From the NCBI GenBank assembly GCA_964016885.1, contig OZ024744.1, positions 102,610,001 through 102,674,000 on the forward strand: a stretch of 64,000 nucleotides of DNA, in the 5' to 3' direction. The translations under genes were made by a program, and so were the position numbers. Each line of letters starts with the position of its first letter. The first letter of the stretch is position 1. Below, one piece after another: positions 2,678-59,217 of the stretch. The DNA comes from Eledone cirrhosa (taxonomy: Eukaryota). The notes beneath the pieces were generated by a model that saw only the letters and a program-made list of their open reading frames with translations, made no database searches and was not told where the DNA came from.

Positions 2678-2952
2678 GGTAGCACACACATCTAGGACCG
2701 CATACAACACATAATCAGATAATACACACATCTAGGATCATATACAACACATAATCAGGTAATACACACATCTAGGACCACATGCAACACATAAGGAGGT
2801 AGCACACACATCAAGGACCACATACAACACACAGGCAAGTAATACATACATTTAGGACCACATACAACACATAAGCAGGTAATACATACATCTAGGACTA
2901 CCTACAACACACAGGCAGGTAATACATACATCTAGGACCAAATACAACACAT
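2678..2952. repeat. ~40-bp minisatellite, about 7 copies, inside hAT element
   Basis: Unit like ggtaatacacacatctaggaccacatacaacacataagca repeated in tandem. Confidence 0.9.
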
Positions 2953-2965
2953 TGTATCATGTGCT

Positions 2966-4016
2966 ATGGACGACGCTAGAGAAATGGTCGGCCAACATAA
3001 GGGTTTCGTCACTCTTCTGAAGAGAGAAAATCTATCTGTATTTGTTGTTCATTGTGTCATTTATCGACAACACTTGGCTGTGAAGAAACTCAGCAAGCCA
3101 CTGAGCAAGTCCTTGCAGGTGGCCCTTGATGTCATCAATTTTATCAAACGGCATTCCCTCAATGAACGAATTTTTCGGCAAATGTGCCAAGATAATGACG
3201 AAGAATTCGTTAAGTTGCTCCTTCATAATGAAGTGAGGTGGCTTTTAAAGGGCAAGTGCCTTACTCACTTCTTTGAACTGTTCGACTCTATCATTGAGTT
3301 TCTGCGAGGACGCATCACAGAACTGTACAAGAAAACCCTTGATGTGAGGCAAAACTGCGCCTACCTCACCGACACCTTTGACAAATGCAATAGCGTCATT
3401 TTGGCTTTGCAGGGGAAGAAGATCACCTTGCTTAAAGCAAGGAATGCTGTGAAAACATTCCTGGCCAAATTGAATGTCATCGAAAGGAATCTTTGTTGAC
3501 GGAATTCTATAATTTTCCTAGTGTCGCCAATGTTCAAAACATTGTAAGCGATGACCAACTCCAAATTTATACCGCTCACCTCCGTGCGGTACAAGACAAC
3601 ATGAGAGAACGGTTTGTCGACCTTTTGCCGATAGACATCCCAATGTGGGTAGCAGATCCCTTCATAGCTAACGTCGATGATTTGGACGTTATATTTCAGG
3701 AAGAATTCATTGAACTTCAAGCAGATTACATGATCAAAATTAGATTTCCCAAAATAGGTGAACCCCTTTTTTTGGATGCAAGAGGAAATTCAGCGTCGAT
3801 TTCCACACCTACATGGCAGAGGCTAAGAGATTTGCTCTGCCTTTTCCAAGCTCATACTTAGTCAAGAGGAGGTTTGGTGCTGTTTCCAGACTGCACAGTA
3901 AGGCTCGCAACCGCTACAATGTAATTACATGTGGAGATCTCCGGCTACATCTTACGAAAATCCAGCCTGACGTCAAAGAGTTAGCTAGACTCCATAAAGT
4001 TCAAGGGTCCCATTGA
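2966..4016 (+). pseudogene. Buster-type hAT transposase C-terminal two-thirds, frameshifted
   Basis: Motifs HCVIYRQHL, LLLHNEVRWL.KG, AYLTDTF, PFPSSYLV.RRF, DLRLHLT.IQPD across three overlapping ORFs. Confidence 0.9.
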
Positions 4017-7249: not shown

Positions 7250-7530
7250 GCTTTTGCAGACCCATCGAAACAACACAATATGTAACTACTCCATTACCAA
7301 AGGTTTCAGGACCCCAGACAATATTAATATATGTCTAGATCGTTCATCAGACAGAGATGTTATGAATAGAAAATATGAAATGAGATTATATATTGTCTAG
7401 GGTCCTGAAACCTTTGGTAATGGAGTAGTTATATATTGTGTTGTTCACTTTATAATTAAATAGCTCTGTTCCATATATAGAGCACTCTTTTTTCCTTTGC
7501 TTTTTCTTCGGAATTGCCTAACATAAATAC
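7250..7530. repeat. Fold-back insertion with hammerhead fragments and tail hairpin
   Basis: Arms ~7268-7324/7390-7446; tcatcag (minus-strand CTGATGA) in spacer; gctc..gagc tail 7463-7483. Confidence 0.55.
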
Positions 7531-7535
7531 ATATC

Positions 7536-8788
<1,253 letters not shown>

Positions 8789-8791
<3 letters not shown>

Positions 8792-9257
8792 TTTGTCCTT
8801 CATCAGTGGTCTTCCAACCGTCCTAGGCATTTCATCGCTTTAAAGACCATATACCTCAGGTTGGTGCGAGCAACGGCTAAAAAAAGTCGTTGGGACACGT
8901 AAATAAAGGGGAGGCTAGGGTAAACAAACAAAATGGTTTAAGCAACAGAAAGTGATGAAGAAAGAGACAAGTCCCAGATTTCTATGAATATAAATTCGGT
9001 GAAATCGTGAACGAGAGAATAAAGACCATCAAACCTGGTTGAAATGTGAGCAAGGAAGGAATTTCGCACAGGTCTAACGGGAGGAAGAAGTCACTTTCTG
9101 TTGCTTAAACCATTTTGTTTGTTTACCCTAGCGTCCCCTTTATTTACGTGTCCCAACGACTTTTTTTAGCCGTTGCTCGCACCAACCTGAGGTATATGAT
9201 CTTTAAAGCGATGAAATGCCTAGGACGGTTGGAAGACGACTGATGAAGGACAAACTT
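8789..9257. repeat. Fold-back insertion, ~167-bp arms, ending in 5' half of a hammerhead core
   Basis: Arms 8789-8955/9091-9257; ctgatgaagg at 9240-9249; TA-flanked. Confidence 0.7.
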
Positions 9258-9298
9258 TTTCATATGTAACCCATTTGCAACGCTGCAGCTCCATTATT

Positions 9299-10039
<741 letters not shown>

Positions 10040-16177: not shown

Positions 16178-17620
16178 CATCATCATCATCATCATCATCA
16201 TCATCATTGTTTAATGTCCATCTTCAACACTAGCATGGGTTAGAAGGGAGTTGTCCCACTTGAGGGAAGGTTGGTCGGGTGACCGTGTCTCACTCATATA
16301 GGACTATCTGGCAGGTTTTCTACGGCTGGATGCCCTTCCTAACACCAACCACATTTACAGTGTGGAACTGGGAACTTTTTACCGTGTTTACCTACACGGC
16401 CACATTACAGCGTGGACTGGGTGTTATTTTTGTCGTGACACCTACACGTCTGGCAGGTTTTCTACGGCTGGATGCCCTTCCTAACACCAACCACATTTAC
16501 AGTGTGGAACTGGGAACTTTTTACCGTGTTTACCTACACGGCCGCATTACAGCGTGGACTGGGTGTTATTTTTGTCGTGACACCTACACGTCTGGCAGGT
16601 TTTCTACGGCTGGATGCCCTTCCTAACACCAACCACATTTACAGTGTGGAACTGGGAACTTTTTACCGTGTTTACCTACACGGCCACATTACAGCGTGGA
16701 CTGGGTGTTATTTTTGTCGTGACACCTACACGTCTGGCGGGTTTTCTACGGCTGGATGCCCTTCCTAACACCAACCACATTTACAGTGTGGAACTGGGAA
16801 CTTTTTACCGTGTTTACCTACACGGCCACATTACAGCGTGGACTGGGTGTTATTTTTGTCGTGACACCTACACGTCTGGCGGGTTTTCTACGGCTGGATG
16901 CCCTTCCTAACACCAACCACATTTACAGTGTGGAACTGGGAACTTTTTACCGTGTTTACCTACACGGCCACATTACAGCGTGGACTGGGTGTTATTTTTG
17001 TCGTGACACCTACACGTCTGGCGGGTTTTCTACGGCTGGATGCCCTTCCTAACACCAACCACATTTACAGTGTGGAACTGGGAACTTTTTACCGTGTTTA
17101 CCTACACGGCCACATTACAGCGTGGACTGGGTGTTATTTTTGTCGTGACACCTACACGTCTGGCAGGTTTTCTACGGCTGGATGCCCTTCCTAACACCAA
17201 CCACATTTACAGTGTGGAACTGGGAACTTTTTACCGTGTTTACCTACACGGCCACATTACAGCGTGGACTGGGTGTTATTTTTGTCGTGACACCTACACG
17301 TCTGGCAGGTTTTCTACGGCTGGATGCCCTTCCTAACACCAACCACATTTACAGTGTGGAACTGGGAACTTTTTACCGTGTTTACCTACACGGCCACATT
17401 ACAGCGTGGACTGGGTGTTATTTTTGTCGTGACACCTACACGTCTGGCGGGTTTTCTACGGCTGGATGCCCTTCCTAACACCAACCACATTTACAGTGTG
17501 GAACTGGGAACTTTTTACCGTGTTTACCTACACGGCCACATTACAGCGTGGACTGGGTGTTATTTTTGTCGTGACACCTACACGATCTCAGTTCGGACTG
17601 GATGTTGTGGTACCAACATA
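16178..17620 (-). mobile_element. Retroposon 3' region with (ATG)n tail, containing an internal tandem array
   Basis: Monomeric relatives at 55858-56085, 59830-60070 and 60556-60901. Confidence 0.7.
16307..17584. repeat. 142-bp tandem repeat, 9.0 near-identical copies
   Basis: Unit starts tctggc(a/g)ggttttctacgg every 142 bp; 1278 bp = 9 x 142. Confidence 0.97.
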
Positions 17621-21593: not shown

Positions 21594-21797
21594 TAGAAGT
21601 GGTTACACAACAGTTAGTTCACCATACCGAGAACAATTGTTTCACCTTAGCGGATCCTCAGCTCGCAATCTCGGATCTGCTAAGATGAAACAATTGTTCT
21701 CGGTATGGTGAACTAACTGTTGTGTAACCACTTCTACCTAACTCGTCCCATGGACTGAGTGCTCTACCACTACGGATATTACCTTCCAGTGTTCTAC

Positions 21798-23657: not shown

Positions 23658-24303
23658 AAAAAACAACAACCTAACATGCATACGCACAGTCACATATATA
23701 TACATATATATACCCACGCATTTGCCGGGACATATACATCTTTATATGCATATGCACATATGCTGCCACACGCATACACCTGCACATATGTATATTTGCC
23801 TGCACACATATGTGCTTCCACATATACAAATATAAACAAAACCGTGAATAAAAGTTCATTATACAATAAAAAGCAATATACCATAAACTAAGGGTACATT
23901 ACTGTAACATAAAATATAATACATAAAATATAATATACAATATGATATATATATATATATATATTTGCCTGCACACATATGTGCTTCCACATTTACAAAT
24001 ATAGACAAAACCTTAAATTAACAGTTAGAGATACATTATACAATAAAAAACAATATACCATAAACTAACGGTAAATTACTGTAACATAAAATATAACATA
24101 TAAAATATACTATACAATATGATATGATATATATATATATATATATATATATACAGTTTTTTCCGTTGTGTTGTAATATAAATATTACACACAGTAGATT
24201 ATCAGCTCACGTAGAGTTTGCTCGACGGTTCTAGTTGTAGTTCCAAAAGTAATCCGGAGAAAAATAGAAAGATTTGAATGGATACAGTTTAGTTGAAAGG
24301 AAT

Positions 24304-24420
24304 TTATTGACACGTGTTTCTATAACAGTTACATAACCTAAAACAGCTATCTACAAACTTTTAGTTATGCAGACATTCAATATTTCAATGTTATTGTTTA
24401 CTGTCATTTCATCAGAATAA
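24304..24420 (-). ncRNA. Type I hammerhead ribozyme (mirror copy)
   Basis: Reverse complement of 27118-27234. Confidence 0.85.
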
Positions 24421-25010
24421 TATTACTGAGGACCTATTTAGTTTTTATAGAGAATATTAGGAGGAAGGGGTGAAGTTGTTAGAAGAATAGTTGAAGGAGT
24501 GGTTTTTCGATAGCAGTGAGAATTCTTGGTGGCAGTGAGTAATTAGATTCCCATCTGTTGTTTTGACATTTTTTATAGAATATATTATTGGTTATTTTTC
24601 TAAATCTATAGAAGGATTAGAGATAGTAAAGATATGCGTGGTTGGTTTTGTGTTTGCACTTAACATTCAGACTTAAATTTTTCTTTCAAGTGTACGTATT
24701 CTTTCACCCACGCATTCACACACAAATATATTTGCACACCTCTACAAAATACATATACTCACAATTCACATATTCATACTTACATATATATACACATGCA
24801 TACACATATATATACACACATGTATTCATGTACATACATACGCGCTCATGTGTATACATTTTCATACTCAACTTATCTTTATATATACACACGTATAGAC
24901 ACACACATATATACATACATACTCTAGTCCATGTGTACACACATACACATACATACACATCCATATACACATACATACATACACATATATATATACATAT
25001 ATACATATAC

Positions 25011-25055
<45 letters not shown>

Positions 25056-25056
25056 C

Positions 25057-25105
<49 letters not shown>

Positions 25106-25374
25106 AGCACTTTAATACATGAATACACTTACATCTAACTATACACATCAAACATATATATATATTTACTTATTTATATACATTTTCACATATATATACA
25201 TACTTATGGACGTTTTTAGACACATTCATTATCGCATATTTGTACCTATTCTCATCAGCATATCTTTTCATTATTAGTATGGTAATTTAAGGTTATTAAT
25301 ATATGTTGAAAAGAGATTGTTTTTATATTTTTCTAACTAGATTAAGGTTTATATAGTTGGGGGATGTCCCTCTT

Positions 25375-25759
25375 TTATGTAATATTCGGCTTGTAGTGGG
25401 AAAAAAGGGTTTTAGTTCTGTGACGGCAGAATAATGTTCGTTCAATTCTGTTATTCAGCAGTTTCTTCTTGTGTGTGATTATGTAATAAATCTCAAGATT
25501 ACACAATTTGCAGAAATTTTGGCTCCTGGAAAAGCTTTGGGTTTTAGCTAATTTTTCCCATTTTAGGGTAAACTTTTGATTGCTATCCCTGAGCGTCCAA
25601 GCTTTCTCTGCTAAAGTTGTTACATTTCTTTGGCTCTGGTGTTTTATTGAGTAAGAATGCCTATACAATCGAGATTTAAACGATGTTGCCGTTGATCCCA
25701 CGTAATACCACTCGTTGCCTCCGGATTTAATGGTACACTTATAAATAATATTTTTTTCC
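25375..25759 (-). pseudogene. GIY-YIG endonuclease domain (inverted copy)
   Basis: Identical mirror of 25779-26163. Confidence 0.85.
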
Positions 25760-26163
25760 CCCTCGGCAATAACTGCCTGGAAAAAAATATTATTTATAAG
25801 TGTACCATTAAATCCGGAGGCAACGAGTGGTATTACGTGGGATCAACGGCAACATCGTTTAAATCTCGATTGTATAGGCATTCTTACTCAATAAAACACC
25901 AGAGCCAAAGAAATGTAACAACTTTAGCAGAGAAAGCTTGGACGCTCAGGGATAGCAATCAAAAGTTTACCCTAAAATGGGAAAAATTAGCTAAAACCCA
26001 AAGCTTTTCCAGGAGCCAAAATTTCTGCAAATTGTGTAATCTTGAGATTTATTACATAATCACACACAAGAAGAAACTGCTGAATAACAGAATTGAACGA
26101 ACATTATTCTGCCGTCACAGAACTAAAACCCTTTTTTCCCACTACAAGCCGAATATTACATAA
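25759..26163 (+). pseudogene. C-terminal GIY-YIG endonuclease domain of Penelope-like element (5'-truncated ORF)
   Basis: Frame reads PLGNNCLEKNIIYKC..WYYVGST..FKSR...H..KW..CKLCNLE..LLN.R.E..CRH to stop; open through the palindrome spacer. Confidence 0.88.
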
Positions 26164-26432
26164 AAGAGGGACATCCCCCAACTATATAAACCTTAATCTA
26201 GTTAGAAAAATATAAAAACAATCTCTTTTCAACATATATTAATAACCTTAAATTACCATACTAATAATGAAAAGATATGCTGATGAGAATAGGTACAAAT
26301 ATGCGATAATGAATGTGTCTAAAAACGTCCATAAGTATGTATATATATGTGAAAATGTATATAAATAAGTAAATATATATATATGTTTGATGTGTATAGT
26401 TAGATGTAAGTGTATTCATGTATTAAAGTGCT

Positions 26433-26481
<49 letters not shown>

Positions 26482-26482
26482 G

Positions 26483-26527
<45 letters not shown>

Positions 26528-27117
26528 GTATATGTATATATGTATATATATATGTGTATGTATGTATGTGTATATGGATGTGTATGTATGTGTATGTGTG
26601 TACACATGGACTAGAGTATGTATGTATATATGTGTGTGTCTATACGTGTGTATATATAAAGATAAGTTGAGTATGAAAATGTATACACATGAGCGCGTAT
26701 GTATGTACATGAATACATGTGTGTATATATATGTGTATGCATGTGTATATATATGTAAGTATGAATATGTGAATTGTGAGTATATGTATTTTGTAGAGGT
26801 GTGCAAATATATTTGTGTGTGAATGCGTGGGTGAAAGAATACGTACACTTGAAAGAAAAATTTAAGTCTGAATGTTAAGTGCAAACACAAAACCAACCAC
26901 GCATATCTTTACTATCTCTAATCCTTCTATAGATTTAGAAAAATAACCAATAATATATTCTATAAAAAATGTCAAAACAACAGATGGGAATCTAATTACT
27001 CACTGCCACCAAGAATTCTCACTGCTATCGAAAAACCACTCCTTCAACTATTCTTCTAACAACTTCACCCCTTCCTCCTAATATTCTCTATAAAAACTAA
27101 ATAGGTCCTCAGTAATA

Positions 27118-27234
27118 TTATTCTGATGAAATGACAGTAAACAATAACATTGAAATATTGAATGTCTGCATAACTAAAAGTTTGTAGATAGCTGTTTTAG
27201 GTTATGTAACTGTTATAGAAACACGTGTCAATAA
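27118..27234 (+). ncRNA. Type I hammerhead ribozyme in PLE 3' UTR, 70-nt helix II loop
   Basis: TTATT-CTGATGA-A-ATGACAGT..70 nt..ACTGTTAT-A-GAAAC-ACGT-GTC-AATAA. Confidence 0.87.
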
Positions 27235-27268
27235 ATTCCTTTCAACTAAACTGTATCCATTCAAATCT

Positions 27269-27309
<41 letters not shown>

Positions 27310-27589: not shown

Positions 27590-29265
27590 TCTATCTATCT
27601 AAGGCGGGTAAAATTCCCGAGATCCATGGACGAGTTCTCTCCAGCGGTCTCTATCCCTCATTATCGCTGCCATATCCTGCATCTCCAACAGACCAGTGTC
27701 TGTCCTTAGGGCATCAACATATGTTAACCTTGGTCTTCCTCTTCTAGTGTGTCCATGTAGGGGCTCCCAAAGGAGCACTGAGTGCAATGTCAACTCTGGA
27801 TGTCGGTGAGCATGTCCAGCCAACCTCAGTCTCCTCTGTGTCACTTTTGAGCTGACTTTTGGGATGCTCCCATACAGCTCTGAGTTTTTCATCCTCAGTG
27901 TATACTGATTAATGTTGAGAGCCATCCTCAGCATTCTCGTGTAGCACCCATCCACAATCTGAGTGAGTCTCTTGGTCAGTGTCCAAGTCTCAGACCCATA
28001 CAGCAGCACAGACTCCACTACAGCAATGAAGAGGCGGATTTTCAGGTCTCTACGAAGGTCCGACTTCCACACCGATCTCAAGCTGTGACACGCCACCCAG
28101 GCCTTGCTCTTCCTCTCAACCACATCATCTTCCGTATTCCCAATCTTTGCTCCCAAATACAGGAAGTCCTCAACCAATTCCAGCGGCTTCCCGCCTACAT
28201 TAGTGATCCCCTCTGGCTTCTCAACATTCTCTACCAGATATTTTGTTTTAGTCTCATTCATTCTCAGCCCCACACTCATCGACACAGTCTCAACCTCCCG
28301 CATCAAATCCTCTGCCTCCTTCACTGTATTTGTCACCAAAACTATGTCGTCGGCAAATTCAGCATCCGATACCTTTTTCGCCCCAACTCTCCTGCTCTGA
28401 GCCGGTGCTACAGTAAAGCCAGAGTCCTGGTGTTTCTCCAGAGCAAGGCGCATACAATAGTCCACTACGATGATAAAAAGGTAGGGAGCCAATGTATCTC
28501 CCTGGAGCACTCCAGCCAGTATCTCAAGTCAGATCCAGGGAACGGGGCCCAAGGATAGGAAGAGGAAATGGCTAGACCATTTTAGGACCCTACTAGGAGA
28601 GCCACCCTCCACAGCCCAGAGCACTGGGGAGATCAGGCGGCTGTTTGAGGAACTGGATGTTGAGACAGAGCCCTTCACCAGAGAGGAGCTTCAGAGAGCC
28701 AAGAAGAGGATCAAGGAGGGCAAGGCTCATGGAGAAGATGGAGTGGCATCAGAGATGATGAAGAGGTGTGATTTTGATGATATCATCCTGGGGTTCTGTA
28801 ACGGGGCACTGGAGAAAGGAGTTGCCCCGAATCAGTGGAGGATCAGTAACATCGTCCCAGTGCCAAAGAAGGGAGATCTCTCTAACACCAACAACTACCG
28901 GGGGATCTCACTGACGTCACTTGTGGCAAAGACCCTCAACAGGATGATTCTTAACAGGATCCAGCCTGAGATGAAGAAGAAGCTCAGGGACAACCAGAAC
29001 GGCTTCAGAGAGGGTAGATCAACCACCAGTCACATCCTGATGCTGAGGAGGATATTAGAGGGAGCTAGAGCAAAGTGCCTTCCTGCGGTCATGGTTTTCA
29101 TTGACTTTAGGAAGGCCTTTGATTCTGTGGACCATTACTGCCTGATGAAGATCTTACAGGCTTATGGAATCCCCAAGAGGATAGTGGACCTGATATCACT
29201 GCTCTACACCAACACCAAAGCCCAAGTCATTACACCTGATGGGATGACAGAGTTCTTTGAGATAC
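27590..29265 (-). mobile_element. RTE-type LINE with inverted 5' segment
   Basis: Minus ORF 27599-28510 (LQGDTLAPYLF, EFADDI) and plus ORF 28743-29265 (NYRGISL, DFRKAFDSV) are consecutive RT parts; ttgagatac shared at both breakpoints. Confidence 0.92.
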
Positions 29266-29830
29266 ACATATATATATATATATATATATATACACGCATA
29301 CACATATGCACACATATATAGACATACATACATATATATATTCACACATACACATACATATACACACATTCCGCCACATATGTACATAATACATGCACAT
29401 GTCTGCACATACATGCGCATATAAGCTCATGCACACAAGCACCCATGCCCATACCCCCCCCCCGCCGCATATATATACATATATACATATCTACACACAC
29501 ACACACATACATATGTCTACGCACAAGTCCACACATAAAAACACGCGAATATAAACACAATATGATAATAAAGCAATATAAATAAATAAATAAATAAATA
29601 AATAAATTTACAATATTTTAGGGTACATTAAAATCTGTATGTAACTGCATAAATAGGTAGAATAAAAAAAGGGGTAAGATAAAAAAATAGGTAAAATAAA
29701 AAAAACAGGGGGGGGGGGTACAGGAGAAGGTGCGTGCGTCCATGTGATATACTACACACGGGTAGTATGAGGTGCAAACCTGTGTCCGAGTGTAAAACAG
29801 GTAACAGTAACAGAACAATAATAGAACAAT

Positions 29831-37048: not shown

Positions 37049-39583
37049 ATGATGTCTACTGCAAAGAAGCTGAAGTTAGATACCAGCAGTAAGGTTAGAC
37101 AGTCGTGTGATGATTATGTTAGATATGGATTTCAAAAAGCTGACACTAAAAAAGATACACCAGATCAGCCCATGTGTTTGCTATGTTCAAAAGTTCTATC
37201 AAATAGCTGTTTAAATCCTGCAAAACTTAAAGACACCTTGATACTAATCACACCAATGATAAAAACAAGTCACTGGAATACTTTACTTCGCTGAAAAACA
37301 ACATAAAAAAATCACAAGCTAATATGTATGACTTGTTTTGTAAAAAGTCAGATAGAAATAAAGCTTTGGCGATATCCAATTTCAGTGGACTAAATGCTGC
37401 TTACGTGCTGTAGTTGCTGTTTACTTCAATGTATGAGGCTATTCCAACAAATTTACATTCCCTTTTTTTTAGCCGTTAAAAGAAATATAAATTTATTTAT
37501 TGGTTTTTTTTTTGCGATTTATTTGCCACTGGGGCATAGATTTCTTTATTTGCCACGGGGGAAGTTTTTACAAAAATCAAGTACAAACATTTAACGAGTG
37601 ATTAAAAAGGAATATAAAAATTAAGTCCTCAATAGAGAGGCAGCCTTTTGGGGTCACACACACCCCCGTAGAAAGTGTGCGACCTTTCTGCCAGGGAGCA
37701 CAGAGAGAGAGAGGGGGGTGCTCCCTTCTTCTCTTACCTGTACAAGCCGATATAGAGAGATGGCCCACTTACACGGGCATTATTGCTACTTTCACCCATC
37801 TTTCATGGAATTGGCTGGGACTGAGTGCCTTTCTCTCCACCTTGATCCTTCTTTCGAAGTGGTATCGGAAGAAGAGGACCATTTGTTGGCCGGCGACATA
37901 TCCCCACAGATCGGCAAAAAAAAATCAAACAAACAAACAAAAACGTGGCAAATAAAGAAATCTATGCCCCAGTGGCAAATAAATCGCAAAAAAAAAAACA
38001 ATAAATAAATCTATATTTCTTTTAACGGCTAAAAAAAAGGGAATGTAAATTTGTTGGAATAGCCTCATACATTGAAGTAAACAGCAACTACAGCACGTAA
38101 GCAGCATTTAGTCCACTAAAATTGGATATCGCCAGCTGCAGTATTAAGGACAAAGAAAAATTAAGCCAGTTACCATTGTCAGCAAATACTGTAAAAAGAA
38201 GGATAATTGATATTTCTTCTGATATAGAAAATCAGATACTAACTGCACTAAAGAAAAGCACATGTTTTGGTCTGCAAGTGGATATTAATAACAAGGCTCA
38301 ATTAATTTGCTATGTACGGTTTGTAGACCTTGATAAAAAAGAATTAGTAGAAGAGTATTTGTTTTGTCTGGTATTAGACATCACAACTAAAGGTCAAGAT
38401 ATATTCAATAAAATTGAAGAGTATTTTTTAAAAAATAGTGTATCTTGGAGCAAGTTGACTTCAATAACAACAGATGGAGCAGCTGCAATGACTGGTAAAA
38501 ATTCTAGTTTGATTGCAAAAATTAAAGAATAGACCCCAAATTGTATTTCAAATCATTGTATGATTCATCGAGAGGTTTTGTGTTAAAAAAAATTCAAAGA
38601 CAGAGATGCTCAAATATTAAATGACCAGCTGAAAAACATTGTCAAAATTATCAATTTGATCCATGCAAGAGCAAAAAATTCTAGAATGTTTGAATCTATT
38701 TGTGAATCTTCTGGAAGTAATTATAATAGATTGTTATTGAACAATGATGTGCGTTGGCTGTCTTTTGGGGATGCTATGAAGAGAGTTTTTGAACTGAGAG
38801 AAGAAATAATAGTTTTTCTAAAAAAACAATGATGAAAGAGCAAGTGTATTAGAAACCAATGAATGGAATGTGCAACTTGCTTATTTAGTAGACATTTTTG
38901 GTGAACTGAACAAACTAAATAAGTGTCTTCAGGGTAACAATGCAGATATTTTTACTTCAATCAATTTTATTACATATTTTCAATCAAAATTAAACATCTT
39001 TATAAAAAGAATTGAATCGGATAATTACTCATTACTTTCAAACCTTGAAATAGAGCTTAAAAAGAGAGAAGGTTTTGACTCCAGCAATCTAAAGAAGATT
39101 ATTCTTTCTCATTTAAAATTGCTTTCCACAAGTTTTTCAGATTATTTTGACTTGATGGAAAAAGATATTGTTAGCGGAAATTTATGGATAAAAAACCCGT
39201 TCACCGAGATCGAGCAGTTAGTGTCAGAAAATGACGCTGGAAATTGTAAAAATTTACTACCTGCACAATGCTTACATCAGTTGATGGATTTGAATTCAAA
39301 CGAAGACCTGAAAGTGATATTCGAAAGCAGAAAGAAAGAACTATGGATCGACTTATTCTTGATTGGGGAGTTTAATAAAATCAGCCAACTTGCATTGAAA
39401 TATTTGACTTTATTCCCATCTAGCTACTTGTGCGAAAAAGGGTTTTCGCAGTTGGTAGAAATCTGCACAAAGAAGAGGAATAAACTGTCAGCAATTGACG
39501 AGTGTATGAGACTGGCATTAACTAGTGTTGAACCTCGATTTTCTAAACTCACTGATGAGGCGCAGCAGCAGAAAAGCCACTAG
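37049..39583 (+). pseudogene. Buster-type hAT transposase with BED-like finger, disrupted
   Basis: YV.YGF, PMCLLC.KVLSN, PLSANTVKRRI, TTDGAAAMTG, HCMIHRE, LAYLVDIF, FPSSYLCEKGFS; stops, frameshifts and an insertion. Confidence 0.92.
37367..38134. mobile_element. Non-autonomous long-TIR (fold-back/MITE-like) element
   Basis: ~190-bp TIRs 37367-37558/37944-38134 starting tggcgatatcc; non-coding spacer; no TSD seen. Confidence 0.78.
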
Positions 39584-40938: not shown

Positions 40939-41131
40939 TTTTAATATAGATGAGATTCTACAGGACTAGTACTGTTTCATTCTTTAGAAATCATCAGGAG
41001 ATTCCTGATGAATTCTAAAGAATGAAACAGTTCTAGTCCTGTAGAATCTCATCTATATTAAAACTTTTATACTCTGCAATGTATTGAGTACCTTACTTAC
41101 TGTGGTTACCTCCGATTCAACCCGGAATAAC

Positions 41132-42389: not shown

Positions 42390-42976
42390 AATAAATAACA
42401 AACAAAAAAAATGCACAATATTGGATGCAACAAAATGGAAATTGTTCAGTGTTGGTGAATACTACAGACAAACATTTTAATGATAATATATAACAAAATA
42501 AGCAATTAACCACTTAACGATAAAATTCCTCTTTTTAAAACTAACATTTAACTTTTTTTAAAAATCAGAATAAACCAATGATTTGCATATCTTGCTCATA
42601 CATTCTCATACACCAACATTGAGGCTCAGCATTCTCATACCCAATCAGTGAGGCCCAACACACTCACACACACACAATGAGGGCTCAACATTCTCATACA
42701 TACACCAACGTTGAAGCTTAACACTCTCATACATTAACAGTGAGGCTCAACATTCTCATACAGCCTCAGTGAGGCTTAACATTCTCATACATCATCAGTA
42801 AGGTTCAACATTCCCATACATACACCAACATTCAAGCTTAACACCCTCATATATTAACAGTGAGGCTCAACATTCTCATACAGCCTCAGTGAGGCTTAAC
42901 ACTCTCATACATTAAAGGTGAGGCTCAACATTCTCATACACAAACAGTGAGGCTCAACTATCTCATATTTAATTGC

Positions 42977-44482: not shown

Positions 44483-47400
44483 TGTGGGGATGGTGTGGTG
44501 GTGTGGAGGAGGTGACTGGAAGTTGGGGACGATCGACCGGAGGCAGAAGAGGAAGTGATGTGAGATGCGTACCCAGGAGCATCCATGGGCCCTCTTTTTC
44601 GGCTGTGACCCGCGACGAATGGATGATACCCATGTGGATGAGCCTAGTTCGTTGAGTGAGCTAGCAGAATTGCAGTAAGTGCAGTAGCTTTCTCATTACA
44701 AACTATTTCGGCATCTGAAGATTTACAATTGAAAAAAAAAAGAAAAAAAAGGAAGAATTTTTTTTTTAAGACAAAGCTACTGGAAAACAGAGAGGATTCT
44801 GTTGTTTGTTACTTACCGCAGGACTAAGGAGATGGTGATGAGATTACGGATGAACGGAGAAGTAATTAGAGCTTTTACCGGTGAAGGTGACGTCGTCACC
44901 TGGATGCGAAAGGTTCGGCTGGTCGCTGAGCTACAAAAGATAGATGATGTAGCGGGCCTCATCGCACTTTATCTCGAAGGTGACATGCTAGCATTGCACC
45001 ACGAGATGGACGACCTCAGCCAGAAGGACGCGCAAAAAATTGAGCAGCGTATGATATAAGGTTCGCAGTGGGACCGCTTACCGCGTTTGCTAAGTTGGCA
45101 AGGATTAGGTGGAATGGTGAGCGTGTGGATATTTTTGCAGCGGTGATAAGGCGATTGGCCATGCTGGCTGGGTTTCAGATGGAATGTGAATATACAGTGC
45201 AGTTGGCGTTCATAAACGGATTTCTGGATGACATCGCAGTGAAACTGCAGCAAATACCCGGCTACAAGGAAATGGAGATGCGTGCATCATAGCAGAGGAT
45301 GCCAAGAAGAGTGTTGCAGCAATAGCAGCGACAGGGGCCCGGGGCAGCTGACAGCAAAATGGCGAAAGGGAGACAAACATGGCGCGCAGTCGCCCGCGAA
45401 CGTTTAGAGGTCATTGTTTTAGGTGCCAGGGCGCGCACATGGCGAGAGACTGTAGAGAGTCAAGGCCGGACATAATGTGCTACTGGTGTAAGCGGCCAGG
45501 CCACATCGCTACCAATTGCGACCAGGGAAATGGTCCAAGGGGGGCTACTGCCCTCACGAGTAGAGGTGCTGCCCATGGTGAAAGTCTTTGTGAGGGGAAA
45601 GCCATTACGAGCCCTCGTGGACATGGGCTGCACGACAACGCTAGTGACCACGAGGGTGGTGCAGAAGTGGAGAGGGAAGAGTAGAGTAAAGGCAGTCGAC
45701 GGTAGGAAGATTGAATGCTGAGGTCGCAGTGAGGTGGAGATGGTAGTACGGGGAAAGAAAATAAGGCTTTCGACCATTGTGATCGACTGCGTGGTGGATG
45801 GAATCGGCGTAGTTATGAACATTTACGCGATTGGCTGTTTAGGAGGCATCACAGTGAACGATGGCGGCGTGACGTTTGGCAGCGCTGTGAGTACGCGACA
45901 GGAGAATGAGAAGGCCCACAAGGAAAAATAAGCCGCTTACACTATACAGGATAAGAACTTCAAGGCCGTGTTCGACGGGCAATGATGGGTTGTTGAGTGG
46001 TACTGGAAGGGAGAACCACCAACACTGAAGAACAAAGTGGGCTGCTATCAGCACACATTGAAAGGAGACACTAGGAGAGAGTTTGAGCAAGAGGTAGAGA
46101 GATGGATCAAGGAGGGCATACTGCTTCCCTGGAAAGAGGAGGTGATGTGTGGGGTACTGCTGTTAATGGTGGTGGCGCAACCCACGAAGAACAAGGTGAG
46201 ACCAGTATTGGATTTTTGGGAGCTGAATGAGCACGTGTCATGCCACATGTGTGGCGAGGTCACGGATGTCTGTGGGGAATCCCTGCGTGAGTGGAGACGT
46301 ATGACGGGGGCTTCCACAATCATCGATTTAAAGTCGGCATATCTACAGCTACACGTGGAGGAGAAGCTGTGGGAGTATCAGCTGGTCAGGTATAAGGCTC
46401 GGACATATTGCCTGACCAGGCTCGGCTTCGGGCTGAACTCAAGACCATTCTGGGAAAGGCCGACAAGATGAAGAGAGCTACCAATTCCTACATCGACGAC
46501 ATCCTAGTGGACGAGACTGCAGTGTTGGTGGCGGAGGTCACGAGCCATTTACAAGGGCATGAATTGACTGCGAAGCCGTCGGAGGCATTGGAGGGAGGAG
46601 CCGCGCTGGGACTTAGGCTGCGAAGAGACAGGACGGGCAAGTTAGTATTTCGAAGGGGAAATGAAGTCCCGGAACTGGGCCCAAATATGAATAGACGGGA
46701 ACTCTTCTCGGCATGTGGAAAATTGGTGGGTCACTACCCAATCGCTGGGTGGCTCTGGATGGCATGCAGCTATGTCGACGAGCAGATGCGGTGACTTGGA
46801 GTGATAAAGTGGGAGAGAGGATGATGGCCATGATGCAGGAGATCATGGGGAGGGTGAAGGCCGATGACCCGGTGCGAGGACGCTGGTATGTCCCCGAATC
46901 GCAGAGCGGAACCGTATGGTGCGATGCCAGCAGCATTAGCGCTAGGTGTCACGCTGGAAATAAGAGGTGTCGAGGTCGAGGATGTAGCCTGGCTCAGGAA
47001 GAAAGATGATTGAAACCACATCAATGTGGCCGAGCTGGACGCGGTGTTGAGAGGGGTGAACCTCGCTTTGAGGTGAGGACTGCGCACCGTTGAGATTCTC
47101 ACCGACTTGGCCTCTGTACTCGGATGGGTGAGATCAGTACTTACCAGTGAGAAGAGAGTGCAAACGAGATGGGCAGCAGAAATGCTGATAAAGCGCCGCC
47201 TGGGAACTCTAGGAGAGCTGGCCGCCGAGTTCGACCTGAGCTTGAGTGTAGTCCTCGTGCCCTCAGAGAAAAATAGAGCAGACGTTCTAACCAGGGTGAA
47301 GAAAACCTGGATGGAAGTGCCGGAGGATGTAGAAGAAGGGATAGCTGCTGTGTGTCGGCTGAGCGAGTCGGAACTTAAAGGGTTGCATGACATGCACCAC

Positions 47401-48245
47401 ATGGGAGTGGATAGGACCCTGTTCCTAGCCAGGAGAATTGACTCCGGTGTTAGCAGACACAGTGTCCAGAAAGTGGTCAGAGGCTGCGTCCGATGTCAGT
47501 CTATCGATCCCGCCCCGGGTGCGCACAAGACGGGAAGTCTCCCGGTGGATCGCAACTGGAAGTGATTGGCGGTGGACATAACACACTACCGACAGGGACC
47601 ATACCTCTCGATGGTTGACTGTGGACCGGGATGGATGGCGATATGGAGAGAAATGAAGACGGGAACTGCGGAGGAAATCACACCGACGTTGAGAGAGATA
47701 TTCTTGGAGCGGGGCCCTGTGGAGGAACTGCTGATGGACAACAGCACAGCGTTCCACTTGGAGGCGCTGAGGGAGATGCTTGATGGGTGGAAGGTGGGCC
47801 GCTTCTTCAGAGCAGCATACAGGCCGAACGGAAATGGAATCGTGGAGCGACACCACTGCACAATCAAAATGGAGCGGTGGCACATCTCACCAATGGAGGC
47901 AGTGTTTTGGTACAACATGTCCCCTCGGGTGGGACAGGCTGAGGAATCGGTATCACACAGAGCAATATACAGATACGAGTGGTGGCACCCGTGCACTGTC
48001 CCACAACAGCCAGTGGAGAGAGAGAACGCATTCGTACAGGTGGGCGAAGAAGTCTGGGTTAAGCCCCCAGATGTACGTTGCACATCTCAATGGGGAAAAG
48101 GAATGGTAATGGCCGTAAATTCCCAGAATAACGTGTCCGTGGACGGAGTGCCACATCATATCCTGGATGTCCGTAGAGTCGTTGTGTCGACGGACTCCGA
48201 GGAAGAGGAAATCCAAAGCGCCGCCCCAACATTACGGAGATCGTC
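44483..48245 (+). mobile_element. Gypsy LTR retrotransposon (putative 5' LTR 44483-44727, gag-pol pseudogene, 3' LTR missing)
   Basis: Two Zn knuckles, protease ALVDMGC, RT DLKSAY/YIDDI, RNase H WCDAS, integrase HHCC and D-D-E (NGIVER); multiple stops. Confidence 0.92.
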
Positions 48246-50557
48246 AATGTGTCTCAAGACTCTCATACAAAAAGAATGAGGTTCAACATTCTCATGCATC
48301 ATCAGTGAGGCCCATCTCAAAATTCACCAGTGAGGCATAACATTCTCATATATCTGAGTGAGGTTCAAAATTCTCATACATCATCAGTGAGGCTCAACTC
48401 GCCTACATCATCAGTGCTGTTCAACATTCTCATAACTCATCAATGAAACTCAACAATCTCATACAACATCCATGAGACTCAAGTCTCCTATATCAACAGA
48501 GGGGCTCATTATTCTCATATGTCATGAATAAAGCTCTATATTGTCATACAACATCAGTGTGGCTCAACATTCTCGTACAGCATCATGAGGCTCAGCATTG
48601 TCATAGATCATCAGTGAGTCTCAATTTTCATATCAGTCATCAGTAAGGCTCAACACACTCATACACCATAAGTGAAGCTCAATATTATCATACGCTGTCA
48701 GTGAAGCACAACAACCAATAAAAGTAAGCTCAACATTCTCATACTCTAACAGTGAAGCTCAATGCTCTTATCTCAAAAATGAGGCTCAACATTCTCATAC
48801 ACCATCACTGAGGCTCTACCTACTCATACACCATCAGTAAGGTTAAACACTCTCATACTACATCAACAATTTGGCTCAACATTCTCATACATCAACTGAG
48901 AGGCTCACCACTCTCATACCTAAAAAATGTGGCTCAACATTCTCATACACCATCAGAGGGGCTCAACACTCTCATACATCAGCAGTAAAGCTCAACATTC
49001 TCATACATCAACTGAGAGGCTCACCACTCTCATACATCAAGAATGTGGCTCAACATTCTCATACACCATCAGAGGGGCTCAACACTCTCATACATAAACA
49101 GTGAGGCTTGAGATTCTCATACATCAATAGCAAGGTTCAACATTCTCATACACCATCAGAGGGGCTCAACACTCTCATACATCAAGAGTGTGGCTCAACA
49201 TCTCATACACCATCAGAGGGGCTCAACACTCTCATACATCAACAGTGAGGCTTGAGATTCTCATACATCAGCAGCAAGGCTCAAAATTCTCATACACCAT
49301 CAGAGGGGCTCAACATTCTCATACACCATCAAAGGGGCTCAACACTCTCATACAGCAATAGTGAGGCTTGAGATTCTCACACATCATAAGTGTGGTTCAA
49401 TATTCTCAGACAACATCATGAGGCTCAACATTCTCATACAACATAAGCATAGCTCAACATTCTCATACAACAGCATGAGGCTCAACGTTACCATACACTA
49501 TCACTGAGGCTCAACATTGACATACATAAACTGTCAGGCTCAACATTCTCATAAATCAACAATGAAGCTGGCTCAACACTCTCATGCATCAACATTCATA
49601 AACCATTGCTGAGGCTCAACATTCTTATACATCAAGTGTGAGGCTCAACTTCCTCATACATCAACAGTGAGGCTCAGCTAAGTCATACACTATCAGTGAG
49701 GCTCAAAATTCTCATACACCATCAATGAAACACAACATTGTCATACATCATCAGTGAGACTCAACATTCTCAGACACCAAAAGTGAAACTCAGCACACTC
49801 CTACATCATCAGTGAAACTCAACATTCTCATACCCCAACAGTGATGTTTAACCCTCTTATGAGGCTCCATAATCTCATTTATCAATAGTGAAGCTCAACA
49901 CATTAATATGTTATCAGTGAGGCTTAACATGCTCATATACACAATTAGTGAGGCTTAACATTCTCAGTGAGGCTCAACACTCTCATACCTCAACAGTGAG
50001 GCTTAACGCTCATATATCAACGGTGAGGCTCAAAATGCTCATACACAATCAGTGAGGCCCAACATTCTCATACCCCAACGGTGATGTTCAACCCTCATAT
50101 ACAGCCTCAGTGAGGTTCAACATTCTTAGATATCAACAGTGAAACTCAACACTCTCAGACACCATCAGTGGGACTCAACATTCTTATACATCAACAGTGA
50201 GGCTCAAAATTGTCATACATCAACAGTCATATATCATTAGTGTGGCTCAACATTCTGAAACAACAGCAGTGAAGCTCACCAATATGACACATCAACAGTG
50301 AGGCTTAACATTCTCAGACACACAGTGAGGATTAACTTTCTTATACATCATCAGCGAAGCTCAACATTCTCATACATCAACTGTGAGGCTTTACAATCTT
50401 ATATATCAACATTGAGGCTCAACACTCTCATATATCATTAGGGAGGCTCAACACTCACATACACCAACAGTGAGGCTCAACACTCTCATACATCATTAGT
50501 GGGGCTCAACATTCTCATGGGCTTCAATGGTAAATATGTTATTTATATTGTCTAATG

Positions 50558-51016: not shown

Positions 51017-51216
51017 NNNNNNNNNNNNNNNNNNNNNNNNNNNNNNNNNNNNNNNNNNNNNNNNNNNNNNNNNNNNNNNNNNNNNNNNNNNNNNNNNNNN
51101 NNNNNNNNNNNNNNNNNNNNNNNNNNNNNNNNNNNNNNNNNNNNNNNNNNNNNNNNNNNNNNNNNNNNNNNNNNNNNNNNNNNNNNNNNNNNNNNNNNNN
51201 NNNNNNNNNNNNNNNN
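51017..51216. other. Assembly gap (200 N)
   Basis: Run of n. Confidence 1.
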
Positions 51217-52374: not shown

Positions 52375-52845
52375 ATAATTAATCAATGAAAAATTGAGTT
52401 AGTTATTTGTAATCAACTGACTCTTATATACCACAGTTGCTAAGCACTCAACGGTATATATTTATGCGGAGTATTATAATAATAATAATAATAATAATAG
52501 TAATAAATGAAAGATATATATTTTATATCATCTCTATTTATTTCATTATATATATTTCGGAGATGCAAAGTTTTATGTATAACATGAACCTAAACATGTC
52601 CTCTTCAGACAAAATACATATGAGATGTATGAATTTTCATGATATGCTGTAGTCACCGATCTGTCCAGCTCGTTTGGCTCCCAGCATATCATGAAAAATC
52701 ATACATCTCATATGTATTTTGTCTGAAGAGGACATGTTTTGGATCATGTTATACATAAAACTTTGCATCTTTGAAATATCTATATATATAATATATAAAG
52801 TAAATAGAGATGATATATCTTTCGTTTATTACTATTATTATTATT
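52375..52845. mobile_element. Fold-back Penelope-like remnant
   Basis: Arms ~52490-52648/52682-52845; tail on left with cactc..gagta; hammerheads in both arms. Confidence 0.75.
52541..52614 (-). ncRNA. Type I hammerhead ribozyme
   Basis: TTTTGT-CTGAAGA-GGA..TCC-GAAAT-ATAT-ATA-ATGAAA; decayed mirror from 52717. Confidence 0.78.
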
Positions 52846-53092
52846 GCCTTTCAGCCTTACGGAGTCGATAAAATAAAGTACCAGTAATGCACTGGGTAAT
52901 TGCTGGCCTTGTGCCAAAAAGTAGAAACAATTATTATATATAATAGAGTTAGGGCCCTTGCCATTCTGAGTTCAAATCCCGCCGAGGTTAACTTTGCCTT
53001 TCATCCTTACGGGGGTCAATAAAATAAAAAGTACCAGTAATACACTGGGTAATTGTAATCTCTGGCCTTGTGCCAAAAGTAGAAACAATTAT
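52845..53092 (+). mobile_element. Two 5'-truncated SINE family A copies
   Basis: Core and tail at ~52845-52935 and ~52965-53092. Confidence 0.78.
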
Positions 53093-53540
53093 TATATATA
53101 TATATAGTGTTGGTATATATATATATAAATATATAAATACATAATCGGAGAAAGCTAATAGCGATACTCCGGCTAAATTCCAACTCACTCAACAAACATT
53201 AGGAAATACCTGAGTATATTCCTAATTAAACGTTCGGAGTGCTAACTAATTGTATTGTGTGGAAAATTGGCTGTATCATTTCATATGAGATATATCAAAT
53301 ATATATATATATATATATATACATCATTTTATGATCGTTTCTATATATATATATATATTATTAAAATAACAGATTAAAGTTTAAGCAAAGAATCGGTGCT
53401 TTCACCCTTAACGGGATATTCTGAAACTAACAAATTTGCTCTACTAACTATTTGCTCTACGGTTCTTATATATTTGATATATATTTATCCTTATCGACCC
53501 CTCTTTGAATTTTAGTCTTCAAATTTATTATTATTACTAT

Positions 53541-53578
<38 letters not shown>

Positions 53579-53619
53579 GTAATAGTAATAAATTTTTTGG
53601 CCATCAATATATATATAAT

Positions 53620-53739
53620 TAGGGATGGCCAAAAACGATGTGTCTTGACATGTGAACTCTCATACAAATCCCATGCCATGAACCCCCTCCCCAACCCTCT
53701 CATTCACATGTCAAGACACATCATTTTTGGCCTTTCTCA
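53620..53739. repeat. Small MITE-like hairpin
   Basis: 30-bp inverted repeat 53627-53656/53703-53732; starts tagggatgg (hAT-like). Confidence 0.55.
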
Positions 53740-54029
53740 CCTGAAAGAAACCAGCCTCATTCATTTTCTATCCAACACCTTTGCAGTTTGGTAGACATGC
53801 CCCCCCCCCCCAACCACCTGTTACTTTTCACAGCTACCGTGTTACATTGTTATATGTATATGTATTGTACATAGACATATATATGCGCATAATGTGTGTG
53901 TGTATATATGAATGATGTATATATATTATAGATATGTGTTATGTTATATATGTATATATTGTATATTACATCCATAAATGTAGTTGGTGACAGGAAGGGC
54001 ATCCAGCATCTATTAAAACCCTGCCATAA

Positions 54030-54640
54030 CTGAAGCAGGTAGAGAAGTTTAAGTATCTTGGGGCCGTGTTCACGAGTGATAGAAGGCAGAAGGCTGAATT
54101 AAGTGCAAGAAATGCACCATCTTCAGTAATGAGAAAAAAGGGAGGTAGGTGTAAAAGCTAAACTTGCTATCTTCAATTCAGTTTCCATGCCAACCCTTAC
54201 CTATGGCCATGAATCTTGGGTAATGGCTGAAAGAATACGATAGCGAATACAAGTGGCCGAAATGGGATTCTTCTGAAGTGTCTTTGGAGTAACGTTTCTC
54301 GATAGAGTGTATAGCTTGGAGATCAGAGAGTCACTCCAGGTAGAGCCGCTACTTCTCCAAATTGAGACATCACAGCTCTGATACTATGGACATGTGGTTA
54401 GAAAGTCTTAGGAAAGAATCACTGGACAGATTTTATGGGCAAAACCAACTGGTAAAAGACCCAGAAGTAGATCCTAGCAAGATGGTTGGATAACATCCAT
54501 GAGTTTGGCTGGTCTCGCTTGGGGATCCAGCCTTATCAGTTGGAGATGGTTGCTTCTGACAGGACCTCCTGTAAAGAGTGTTTGAGGACTCTGCCCCTAC
54601 AACCTTCTCAGGAATAAAGGGGCAAAGAAGAAGAAGCAGA
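54030..54640 (+). mobile_element. RTE-type LINE 3' fragment (related fragment 58285-58629)
   Basis: KQVEKFKYLG.VF, LTYGHESW, YGHV.R motifs; (aga)n tail. Confidence 0.75.
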
Positions 54641-55063
54641 CCTCCGTATGCGTGTTAATGTATATTATATATGTATATTGTGTATTATGTATTATGTATT
54701 TATATACATACATTATGTGGTATATATATTGTATAAACACCTACCCAAAACATCACTAAGAGCAGGTATGGTGTGGCCAACTGGTCAGGCTTGTCTCATA
54801 ATAGTGCCACCCAGTTCAACAACTGTAAACGTGGTTGGTTTTAGGAAGGGCATCCAGCTGCAAAAATCCCAGCCAAAGTACATTTCTGTTTGAACAAAAT
54901 ATGGCACAGCTAACTGGCCAGACTTGTCTCATAACGTGGACGAGCTGTCTAACCCATGCAAGCATGGAAAAATGGATGTGAAAAGAATGATGATGCATCC
55001 ATATATACATGCACACACACACGTGTATATATATAATATATTTATAGATGTATATATATATAT

Positions 55064-55829: not shown

Positions 55830-56088
55830 TGTATATATATATATATATATACACACACATCATCATCATCATCATCATCATCGTTTAACATCCATTTTCC
55901 ACGCTAGCATGGGTTAGACGGGAGTTGTCCCAATTTGAGTCAAGGTTGGTCGGGTGACCGTGTCTCGCTCATATAGGACTATCTGGCAGGTTTTCTACGG
56001 CTGGATGCCCTTCCTAACACCAACCACATTTACAGTGTGGAACTGGGAACTTTTTACCGTGCCACATTACAGCGTGGACTGTGTTTTT

Positions 56089-56125
<37 letters not shown>

Positions 56126-56296
56126 CGAAGGAAGTGTGGTAAGGAACCAGGTGGACCATAATGCATCAGATTACTCAATACTAAGGGTAGTAGAGTGGGT
56201 AATAGGATATTTATTACCACACTAAAAATCTAATTTAGTCTAGAAATAGCCATCGAAACGGCTTGAGCTCTGCCGTCGGGGTCTTGAACATTTTTC

Positions 56297-56327
<31 letters not shown>

Positions 56328-59213: not shown

Positions 59214-59217
59214 ATAT

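Follow-up and report, generated by a model that had tools for sequence, protein, structure and literature searches.

Two head-to-head, 5'-truncated copies of a Hydra-type Penelope-like retrotransposon form a palindrome in a (TA)n microsatellite of Eledone cirrhosa

This study analyzed a 64,000-nucleotide (nt) stretch of Eledone cirrhosa DNA (the window; GenBank assembly GCA_964016885.1, contig OZ024744.1, positions 102,610,001 to 102,674,000 of the forward strand), which contains a large palindromic element at 24154-27274. The analysis confirmed the layout of this element as two head-to-head, 5'-truncated copies of a Hydra-type Penelope-like element (PLE), a retrotransposon, lying in a (TA)n microsatellite. 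Taken as a whole, the element is probably a non-autonomous pair of Hydra-clade PLE copies that arose from one insertion, in which both target strands were nicked and the complementary DNAs (cDNAs) were joined by microhomology. The unusual part of the element is its long, apparently composite 3' end, which carries one intact and one likely dead hammerhead motif.

Arms, tail and flanks of the palindrome

The left arm (24264-25759, minus strand) is an inverted 5'-truncated copy and the right arm (25779-27274, plus strand) a direct one. The arms are 1496 nt each and are exact reverse complements, with 0 differences even across their microsatellites, and the 95% upper bound on their divergence is 0.2%. 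The spacer between them measures 19 nt (25760-25778, plus strand). An earlier sequence-only reading of the window had described apparently identical arms of approximately 1496 bp with a 19-bp spacer, and these results bore it out. That reading had also taken all of 24154-27274 as an apparently perfect palindrome; this held for 24264-27274, whereas 24154-24263 (minus strand) proved to be a 110-nt 3' extension of the left arm only, of the kind called a tail in PLEs. The outer ends of the tail (24154) and of the right arm (27274) are the putative distal and proximal start sites of reverse transcription, respectively.

As the sequence-only reading had suggested, the element lies in (TA)n at both ends, the left run spanning approximately 24127-24153 and the right run 27272-27305, the first 3 nt of which are common with the arm end. 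The right arm runs straight into its (TA)n run, and the left arm reaches (TA)n only after the 110-nt tail. Self-BLAST revealed no other high-identity match to the arms within the window. The flanks outside the palindrome are mutually unrelated, with a tandem duplication on the left and a microsatellite and a long interspersed element (LINE)-like reverse transcriptase (RT) fragment on the right. The duplication (23786-24142; 177-nt units, 88% match) lies immediately left of the insertion; the LINE-like RT (27599-29321, minus strand) occupies two frames of 309 and 278 amino acids (aa); its parts are rearranged, and one of its ends has (TA)n. If transcribed, the palindrome would be expected to form a hairpin of 1.5-kb double-stranded RNA. 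A miniature inverted-repeat transposable element (MITE) or a Foldback DNA transposon was rejected on account of the asymmetric ends and the PLE content of the 3' sequence.

The endonuclease fragment and its assignment to the Hydra clade

The plus-strand frame that begins at 25759 (PLGNNCL-EKNIIYKC) remains open for 134 aa and ends at a stop codon at 26161-26163. This frame, P0002 (25759-26163), has neither a start codon nor an RT and is directly followed by the stop, and its counterpart in the left copy (25375-25759, minus strand) extends for 127 aa to the stop and is without PLGNNCL. The IIY/YVG, KW, CxLC, and CRH motifs that the sequence-only reading had listed are all present, and so is the absence that it had noted: a single Cys lies between GIY and YIG, so that the CCHH zinc finger is lacking. 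The conserved residues Y13, Y26, G28, R37, H41, E96, and N109 are in place.

A HMMER scan with P0002 identified 2893 relatives at E ≤ 0.001, the best of which shared 40% identity and aligned from residue 1. We aligned P0002 with 61 of the best 150 matches, mostly shorter ones, to obtain alignment A1, the consensus of which reads CNCR-x4-CPLxGxCL, VY, YIG, FKxR, H, W, W, CxLCxxE, LNxRxE, CRH. In this alignment, C90, C93, E96, N109, C118, and H120 are all invariant or nearly so, which places a CxxC and a CxH on the flanks of the E and N; the Pfam family PF01541 (GIY-YIG) was matched by 9 of its 62 members. No stretch of A1 was sufficiently conserved to serve for a locus scan. Among the best 150 of the 2893 relatives, CxxC..E was found in 147 and CxH in 140, CxxC between GIY and YIG in 0 of the 127 that could be scored, and more than 150 aa after the endonuclease (EN) in none. 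A profile search for longer proteins yielded 83 relatives, in which the EN ends at a median of 0 aa from the C terminus. All 48 of these relatives with a length of at least 650 aa carry DK[TS], YxDD, CxxC..E, and a C-terminal CxH, and most carry RW[RKQ] (38/48) and CxCX5C (34/48). In three full-length relatives, 565-604 aa precede the truncation point of the window copy. Searches of other kinds returned little: word-index homolog searches with P0002 alone confirmed 0 of 51 longer and 0 of 6 near-length candidates, Pfam had no match for any of five long relatives of P0002, and the metagenome scans contained no relatives of P0002, with 253 stretches fitting the pattern and 0 confirmed.

The structure model of P0002 (pLDDT 92.3) was most similar to I-TevI (Z 10.6, rmsd 2.2, 89 aligned residues), followed by T4 EndoII (Z 8.5) and UvrC (Z 7.0). 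A Foldseek search with the model gave only weak matches and none at E ≤ 0.001, and a PDB sequence search likewise gave only weak matches (best E 0.065; EndoII 0.14). The ESM Atlas clusters closest to P0002 scored 0.94-0.97, and one of them is named GIY-YIG.

The available parts of PMC8557442 define the Hydra clade by a C-terminal GIY-YIG without CCHH, a CxCX5C linker, and CxxC and CxH around a conserved E and N. An RT with RWK and DKT motifs, a single open reading frame, a hammerhead in the 3' repeat, and (TA)n insertion are given there as further traits, and a length generally below 3 kb as a tendency rather than a strict criterion. Because the EN motifs and the features of the long relatives match this definition, the findings, together with the fold model, support the 134-aa frame as a GIY-YIG endonuclease of the Hydra-clade type, as the sequence-only reading had assigned it; its long relatives are Hydra-type RT-EN proteins. 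The fragment itself is unlikely to yield a functional protein because it lacks a start codon and an RT and keeps just half of the linker.

Other assignments were considered and rejected. The two-Cys CCHH between GIY and YIG of the canonical PLEs with a C-terminal EN (Penelope/Poseidon, Neptune, and Nematis) is lacking. Naiad/Chlamys PLEs, in which an N-terminal EN precedes the RT, do not fit a domain followed by a stop whose 150 close relatives include none with a long downstream region. A retrozyme of the non-LTR type (LTR, long terminal repeat) consists of non-coding units that are directly repeated in tandem and all carry a type I hammerhead (bioRxiv 10.64898/2026.07.22.740005, available parts); the element here is an inverted coding pair without tandem units. 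A domesticated or functional stand-alone nuclease was rejected on the missing start codon and the halved linker.

The truncation point and related contigs in public runs

Of 24 public runs listed, 8 contain half or more of the sampled element words, and eight organism labels contain at least 0.30 of them; runs with small shares were ignored. We compared region 25725-26430 with four runs (X1, X2, X3, and X20). X1 and X2, which belong to one study, each contain one contig over 25758-26353 with 3 differences (>99% identity). X3 contains 298 matching pieces, 153 of them at 99% identity or above, with (TA)n loose ends and a very high summed depth, which does not give copy number; this pattern is as would be expected from a large family of truncated copies. 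X20 (raw Hi-C, approximately 1 in 100 sampled) provided 1 read and was uninformative. Two of the three variants within the reading frame in the run contigs are third-position changes.

The matches in X1, X2, and X3 all start at 25758, and the sequence differs before that position. Translated by eye, the loose ends before 25758 in these three runs give C-N-C-x5-C in the same frame as PLGNNCL; this is the CxCX5C linker, which the window copy has lost by truncation. The X1 contig continues for 1924 nt upstream of 25758, which is, judged by length, enough for a whole RT. Because the contigs match from 25758 and read into the linker upstream of it, the spacer is genuine element sequence, namely the end of the CxCX5C-PLxGxCL linker, and the right copy is truncated at 25758. 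The alignment of homologs from query residue 1 and the consensus CPLxGxCL also support the spacer as element sequence. The true 5' end of the right copy is thus at 25758, and 25758-25759 is a 2-nt microhomology (CC/GG) at the inversion junction that also forms the end of the left arm; the left copy is truncated 21 nt further in than the right copy. These results support the centre as a real 5' truncation point with 2-nt microhomology, which the sequence-only reading had deduced from the continuation of the plus-strand frame through the spacer.

The full-length element may measure approximately 2.6 kb to the first (TA)n block, or approximately 3.5 kb if the distal module described below is native. 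The sequence-only reading had taken the identity of the arms as a sign of very recent activity. Such activity is compatible with the data (0 differences in 1496 nt, an intact frame, and >99% contig identity in two runs); arm-to-arm conversion or assembly polishing could equally have produced identical arms.

Runs X1, X2, and X3 bear three different organism labels, and a near-identical element occurs in all of them: X1 and X2 have one contig of low depth each, and X3 has hundreds of pieces. Possible explanations are a burst within the lineage, close kinship, transfer, and carry-over. Horizontal transfer, which was considered in view of the eight organism labels noted above, is not claimed, given coded labels, a comparison of four runs, and single clean contigs in X1 and X2 that may be carry-over from a high-copy source. 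The listed runs with element words include no RNA run, which says nothing on expression.

Two hammerhead motifs and an apparently composite 3' region

A motif scan identified a type I hammerhead motif near the 3' end of the right arm (27118-27234, plus strand) and its mirror in the left arm (24304-24420, minus strand; core at 24415), in agreement with the hammerhead noted in the sequence-only reading. This distal motif has intact CUGAUGA and GAAA cores, a 5-bp stem I, an 88-nt stem II hairpin (-24.8 kcal/mol), and a palindromic ACACGUGU stem III, with a predicted GUC cleavage site after 27229. Its constrained active fold lies 3.8 kcal/mol above the free fold, and none of 2000 shuffled versions of the 3' region (1221 nt) reproduced it, with thresholds set post hoc. 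The motif is intact in core and topology and is predicted to be active, with a non-canonical 88-nt stem II. According to the available parts of PMC4209133, minimal PLE hammerheads are thought to act as dimers and cleave poorly in vitro. A 34-nt hammerhead pattern had 0 matches in the metagenome scans.

A second, altered hammerhead motif, which the sequence-only reading had not mentioned, lies closer to the stop codon at 26276-26333 (plus strand; mirror at 25205-25262, minus strand, as follows from arm identity). It has a CUGAUGA core 117 nt past the stop, a 4-bp stem I, three unpaired bases before an 8-bp stem II, and no loop III. Shuffling reproduced it in 0 of 3000 versions of 26164-26431 and in 5 of 3000 versions of the whole 3' region, again with post hoc thresholds. 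At position 12 (26322) it carries A for G, and no variant of 26322 is listed in X1-X3. This proximal motif is predicted to be inactive because A replaces G12, the general base of the hammerhead (PMC6155905, available parts).

Between the two motifs, approximately 100 nt past the proximal one, lies a degenerate, host-like (TA)n/(TG)n microsatellite block of approximately 430 nt (26432-26863, plus strand), followed by approximately 250 nt of A/C-rich, unique, non-coding sequence (26864-27117, plus strand), in which six-frame translation and tblastn of the full-length relatives found nothing. In this copy, the 3' end thus looks composite, with an altered hammerhead, microsatellite DNA, and then an intact hammerhead-tail module.

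The distal module resembles the 3' end of a non-coding fold-back at 9333-9947 (score 103 versus a null maximum of 77 in 200 shuffles; 64%, E 0.002), which has the same break point and a 113-nt one-sided extension. This fold-back keeps the 3' half of a hammerhead, and no CTGANGA core occurs within its arms.

This composition raises the question of whether the Hydra fragment was a passenger, mobilized together with microsatellite DNA by another PLE family that owns the distal hammerhead-tail module, in which case the Hydra protein would not be the maker of the palindrome. The proximal relic lies at the usual Hydra spacing (117 nt versus approximately 126 nt in Hydra-1_Obim, by eye) with (TA)n approximately 100 nt later, the distal module matches that of the non-coding fold-back, and capture of host DNA before the 3' pseudo-LTR (pLTR) is recorded for Pen1_Av in the available parts of PMC3846280. 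However, no variant of 26322 is listed in X1-X3, which suggests that the sampled family lacks a canonical ribozyme at the proximal position and would depend on the distal one. Moreover, published Hydra hammerheads include palindromic stems III similar to the distal one (PMC8557442, available parts), and the window yielded no further PLE coding sequence. We regard a passenger origin as improbable.

Neighboring fold-backs

The self-BLAST list yielded 12 local fold-backs after nested matches, pairs of short interspersed elements (SINEs), and three short or weak matches were left out. An end lies within 15 nt of (TA)n in 7 of the 12 (null mean 1.3, maximum 6 in 5000), and 6 adjoin (TA)n on one side and carry 33-113 nt extra on the other. 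A CTGANGA core was found in 8, and three others besides the palindrome (at 41005, 52608, and 59625) passed the hammerhead topology scan. The neighboring fold-backs probably arose by the same kind of process and mostly belong to other families.

The sequence-only reading had proposed that the palindrome ties the non-coding fold-backs to an autonomous partner, and this proposal was not borne out. The palindrome copy has no RT and is not an autonomous partner, and its 3' end is common to one of the five fold-backs tested; the other four (52487, 59215, 8778, and 40939) fell within the null range. The tie is weak because the sole match, to 9333-9947, involves the distal module, and this module may be foreign to the Hydra element.

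Further fold-backs were observed at 802-1434, 1526-1658, 7269-7445, 8778-9268, 21594-21736, 40939-41063, 52487-52845, 59215-59464, and 59560-59685. They lie mostly at (TA)n, and several have hammerhead cores and one-sided tails of 33-110 nt; by eye, 40939 is akin to 59560 and 52487 to 59215. The structure at 37367-38134, with 191-nt inverted arms (98%) around 386 nt, lies far from (TA)n, has no hammerhead core, and is more MITE-like. Lone hammerhead-shaped motifs occur outside the listed fold-backs at 12194 and 13230 (minus strand).

A model of the insertion

The reading that we consider probable, one insertion with nicking of both strands, would proceed as follows. A full-length RT-EN protein made elsewhere in the genome would nick both strands of the (TA)n run, and reverse transcription would start at two internal RNA sites 110 nt apart, corresponding to 27274 and 24154. 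Each nicked strand would prime its own cDNA, and the two cDNAs would come to a halt almost at one position, probably where a single broken RNA had its 5' end; a single shared, broken RNA would explain arms that are identical and end just 21 nt apart. The cDNA 3' ends would then anneal (GG/CC), and the gaps would be filled. The template for these cDNAs would have had a composite 3' region, in which G12 had disappeared from the ancestral hammerhead in the usual Hydra position, and read-through over a microsatellite into a second PLE terminal module supplied a working hammerhead and the RT start sites. In the available parts of PMC11167929, a purified PLE protein is reported to nick and extend both strands of AT-rich DNA in vitro, with reverse transcription from two internal sites that bound the tail.

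Taken alone, the step in which two cDNAs are joined is favored by a modest degree only, and the arrangement of the spacer bears on it. The spacer continues the tail-less arm and not the tail-bearing one, and the strand that is antisense through the spacer starts at the tail-less end and finishes with the 110-nt tail. This strand cannot have copied the tail from itself because its first half starts tail-less. Such an arrangement fits two joined cDNAs better than a simple snap-back.

The same element could also have been built by self-priming, in which one cDNA or antisense template folds back on the 2-nt microhomology and the asymmetry of tail and spacer arises in resolution or by a later flip. 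Self-priming would directly account for arms that are 100% identical and near-equal in length, it was proposed earlier for inverted PLE junctions (PMC3846280, available parts), and several neighboring fold-backs have no spacer or a short one. The absence of the tail from the first half of the antisense strand would nevertheless require an extra event, and we consider self-priming unlikely.

Several results weigh against a single insertion with joined cDNAs of a Hydra-type PLE. A crossover between the arms after a snap-back could also have produced the orientation of the spacer, and a target-site duplication is unreadable inside (TA)n. Pfam gave no match for P0001 or P0002. Rfam called neither hammerhead, at the gathering score or at E ≤ 10; its microRNA matches at E ≤ 10 correspond to hairpin or microsatellite sequence and lie below the gathering score. 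The inversion junction was absent from all four runs compared, which include no long reads, whose contigs drop rare variants, and which may derive from other individuals or species.

The absent junction, together with identity that is perfect even over unstable microsatellites, would also be expected if a single 5'-truncated copy had been mirrored by a fold-back read or by polishing. The mirrored sequence, however, does not extend beyond the element, and the two flanks are unlike each other. Only one side has a tail, an arrangement known from published PLEs and seen in older neighboring fold-backs (81-98% self-match). The spacer consists of element sequence, is in frame, and comes with microhomology. 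With a mirror whose ends make biological sense and a layout common to older, diverged neighbors, an assembly or read artifact is very improbable. A pair of truncated copies from one insertion is retained as the preferred explanation.

A broader proposal is that a young Hydra family swapped its ribozyme by way of a captured PLE terminus that is common to a non-coding fold-back family and that its palindromes are head-to-head joins of two cDNAs. We offer this as a tentative possibility. If the ribozyme swap is family-wide, it would argue for selection that keeps a working hammerhead-tail module and would bear on the role of hammerheads in PLEs. If the palindromes are joins of two cDNAs, the orientation of spacers in the many fold-backs of this genome would let the second half of PLE integration be read directly from genomic sequence.

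Other repeats in the window

The stretch 16307-17584 consists of nine 142-nt tandem units (99% identity), to which a dispersed repeat at 55930-56061 is related. Frames resembling RT, RNase H, and integrase, attributed by eye to an LTR retrotransposon, lie at 45986-48279 and adjoin a 29-nt satellite (42594-42967 and 48277-50518). Transposase-like fragments, which we take to be hAT/SPIN-like, were found at 2936-3499 and 38822-39583. A tRNA-headed SINE family of approximately 300 nt (84-97% identity) is represented at 59147-59204 (minus strand), with copies near 23152, 32964, 34570, 50745, 58888, and 61304. With its wealth of (TA)n and SINEs, the setting of the palindrome may be likened to octopus genomes. 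An assembly gap of 200 N occupies 51017-51216.

Significance and comparison with known systems

The palindrome adds one family to the little-sampled Hydra clade and, as a palindromic copy, is conceptually nothing new. Its value is that of a clean specimen, in which both ends, the truncation points, and the microhomology are all readable. How inverted PLE structures form is still treated as open in the available parts of PMC8557442 and PMC11167929. With approximately a dozen fold-backs per 64 kb, the orientation of the spacer relative to the side of the tail is countable and would separate two-cDNA joining from snap-back.

The following comparisons draw on the accessible portions of the cited papers. 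The element resembles the Hydra clade (Craig et al. 2021, PMC8557442) in its C-terminal GIY-YIG without CCHH, CxCX5C, CxxC/CxH, 3' hammerhead motif, and (TA)n target, the last seen at both palindrome ends and in the (TA)n loose ends of the X3 family contigs. Like the palindrome here, the Hydra element Penelope-13_HM includes an inverted copy that is 5'-truncated (nt 1-966) and in which the hammerhead is mirrored. The element differs from the clade in a 3' region of approximately 1.1-1.2 kb versus a few hundred nt, a putative length of approximately 3.5 kb versus less than 3 kb for most members, a tail of 110 nt versus 30-40 nt, a stem II of 88 nt versus the short stems in Hydra File S2, and two hammerhead motifs, one with A at position 12. 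Hydra elements have already been recorded in an octopus: Hydra-1_Obim (Octopus bimaculoides) shares the clade motifs and the (TA)n target, and its hammerhead lies approximately 126 nt past the stop, like the proximal motif. By eye, Hydra-1_Obim is nonetheless a different family, whose EN sequence, hammerhead, and 3' end do not match the palindrome element, and P0002 also differs from the other Hydra rows of the supplement. File S7 contains only six new Hydra consensus sequences. Of six short motifs, five were unmatched in the supplement, where line breaks may hide matches, and the sixth matched the Naiad file at an unrelated position.

Poseidon PAc of Anolis carolinensis (Frangieh et al. 2024, PMC11167929) provides the model for the likely formation of the palindrome, with nicking of both strands of AT-rich DNA and two RT start sites bounding the tail. 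It differs in belonging to a clade with a CCHH-type EN and in having a much shorter tail, and the joining of two cDNAs is not described in the accessible portion of that paper. In Adineta vaga (Arkhipova et al. 2013, PMC3846280), the inverted pLTRs of Pen2a_Av are shifted by a few nt and may carry a one-sided tail, like the palindrome, and in Pen1_Av captured host DNA forms a 0.9-1.5-kb spacer ahead of the 3' pLTR, like the apparently composite 3' end here. Both belong to the Penelope clade, their inverted parts measure approximately 200 nt versus 1.5 kb, and the accessible text describes no ribozyme relic. The minimal PLE hammerheads (Cervera and de la Pena 2014, PMC4209133) likewise have a short helix I, a palindromic or absent helix III, a long helix II, and opposite-strand pairs; their helix II measures 7-8 bp versus an 88-nt hairpin here, where activity is only predicted.

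A literature search, for which most subscription papers and Repbase were outside the scope, turned up no account of this family, of a replaced ribozyme, or of PLE twin priming. Published PLEs, the Hydra clade included, already show 5'-truncated copies in inverted orientation, tails on one side, hammerheads, and a preference for (TA)n targets, and the palindrome thus represents a new family of a known clade. What distinguishes this family from the known systems is its long, apparently composite 3' region, 88-nt stem II, 110-nt tail, and apparent ribozyme relic.

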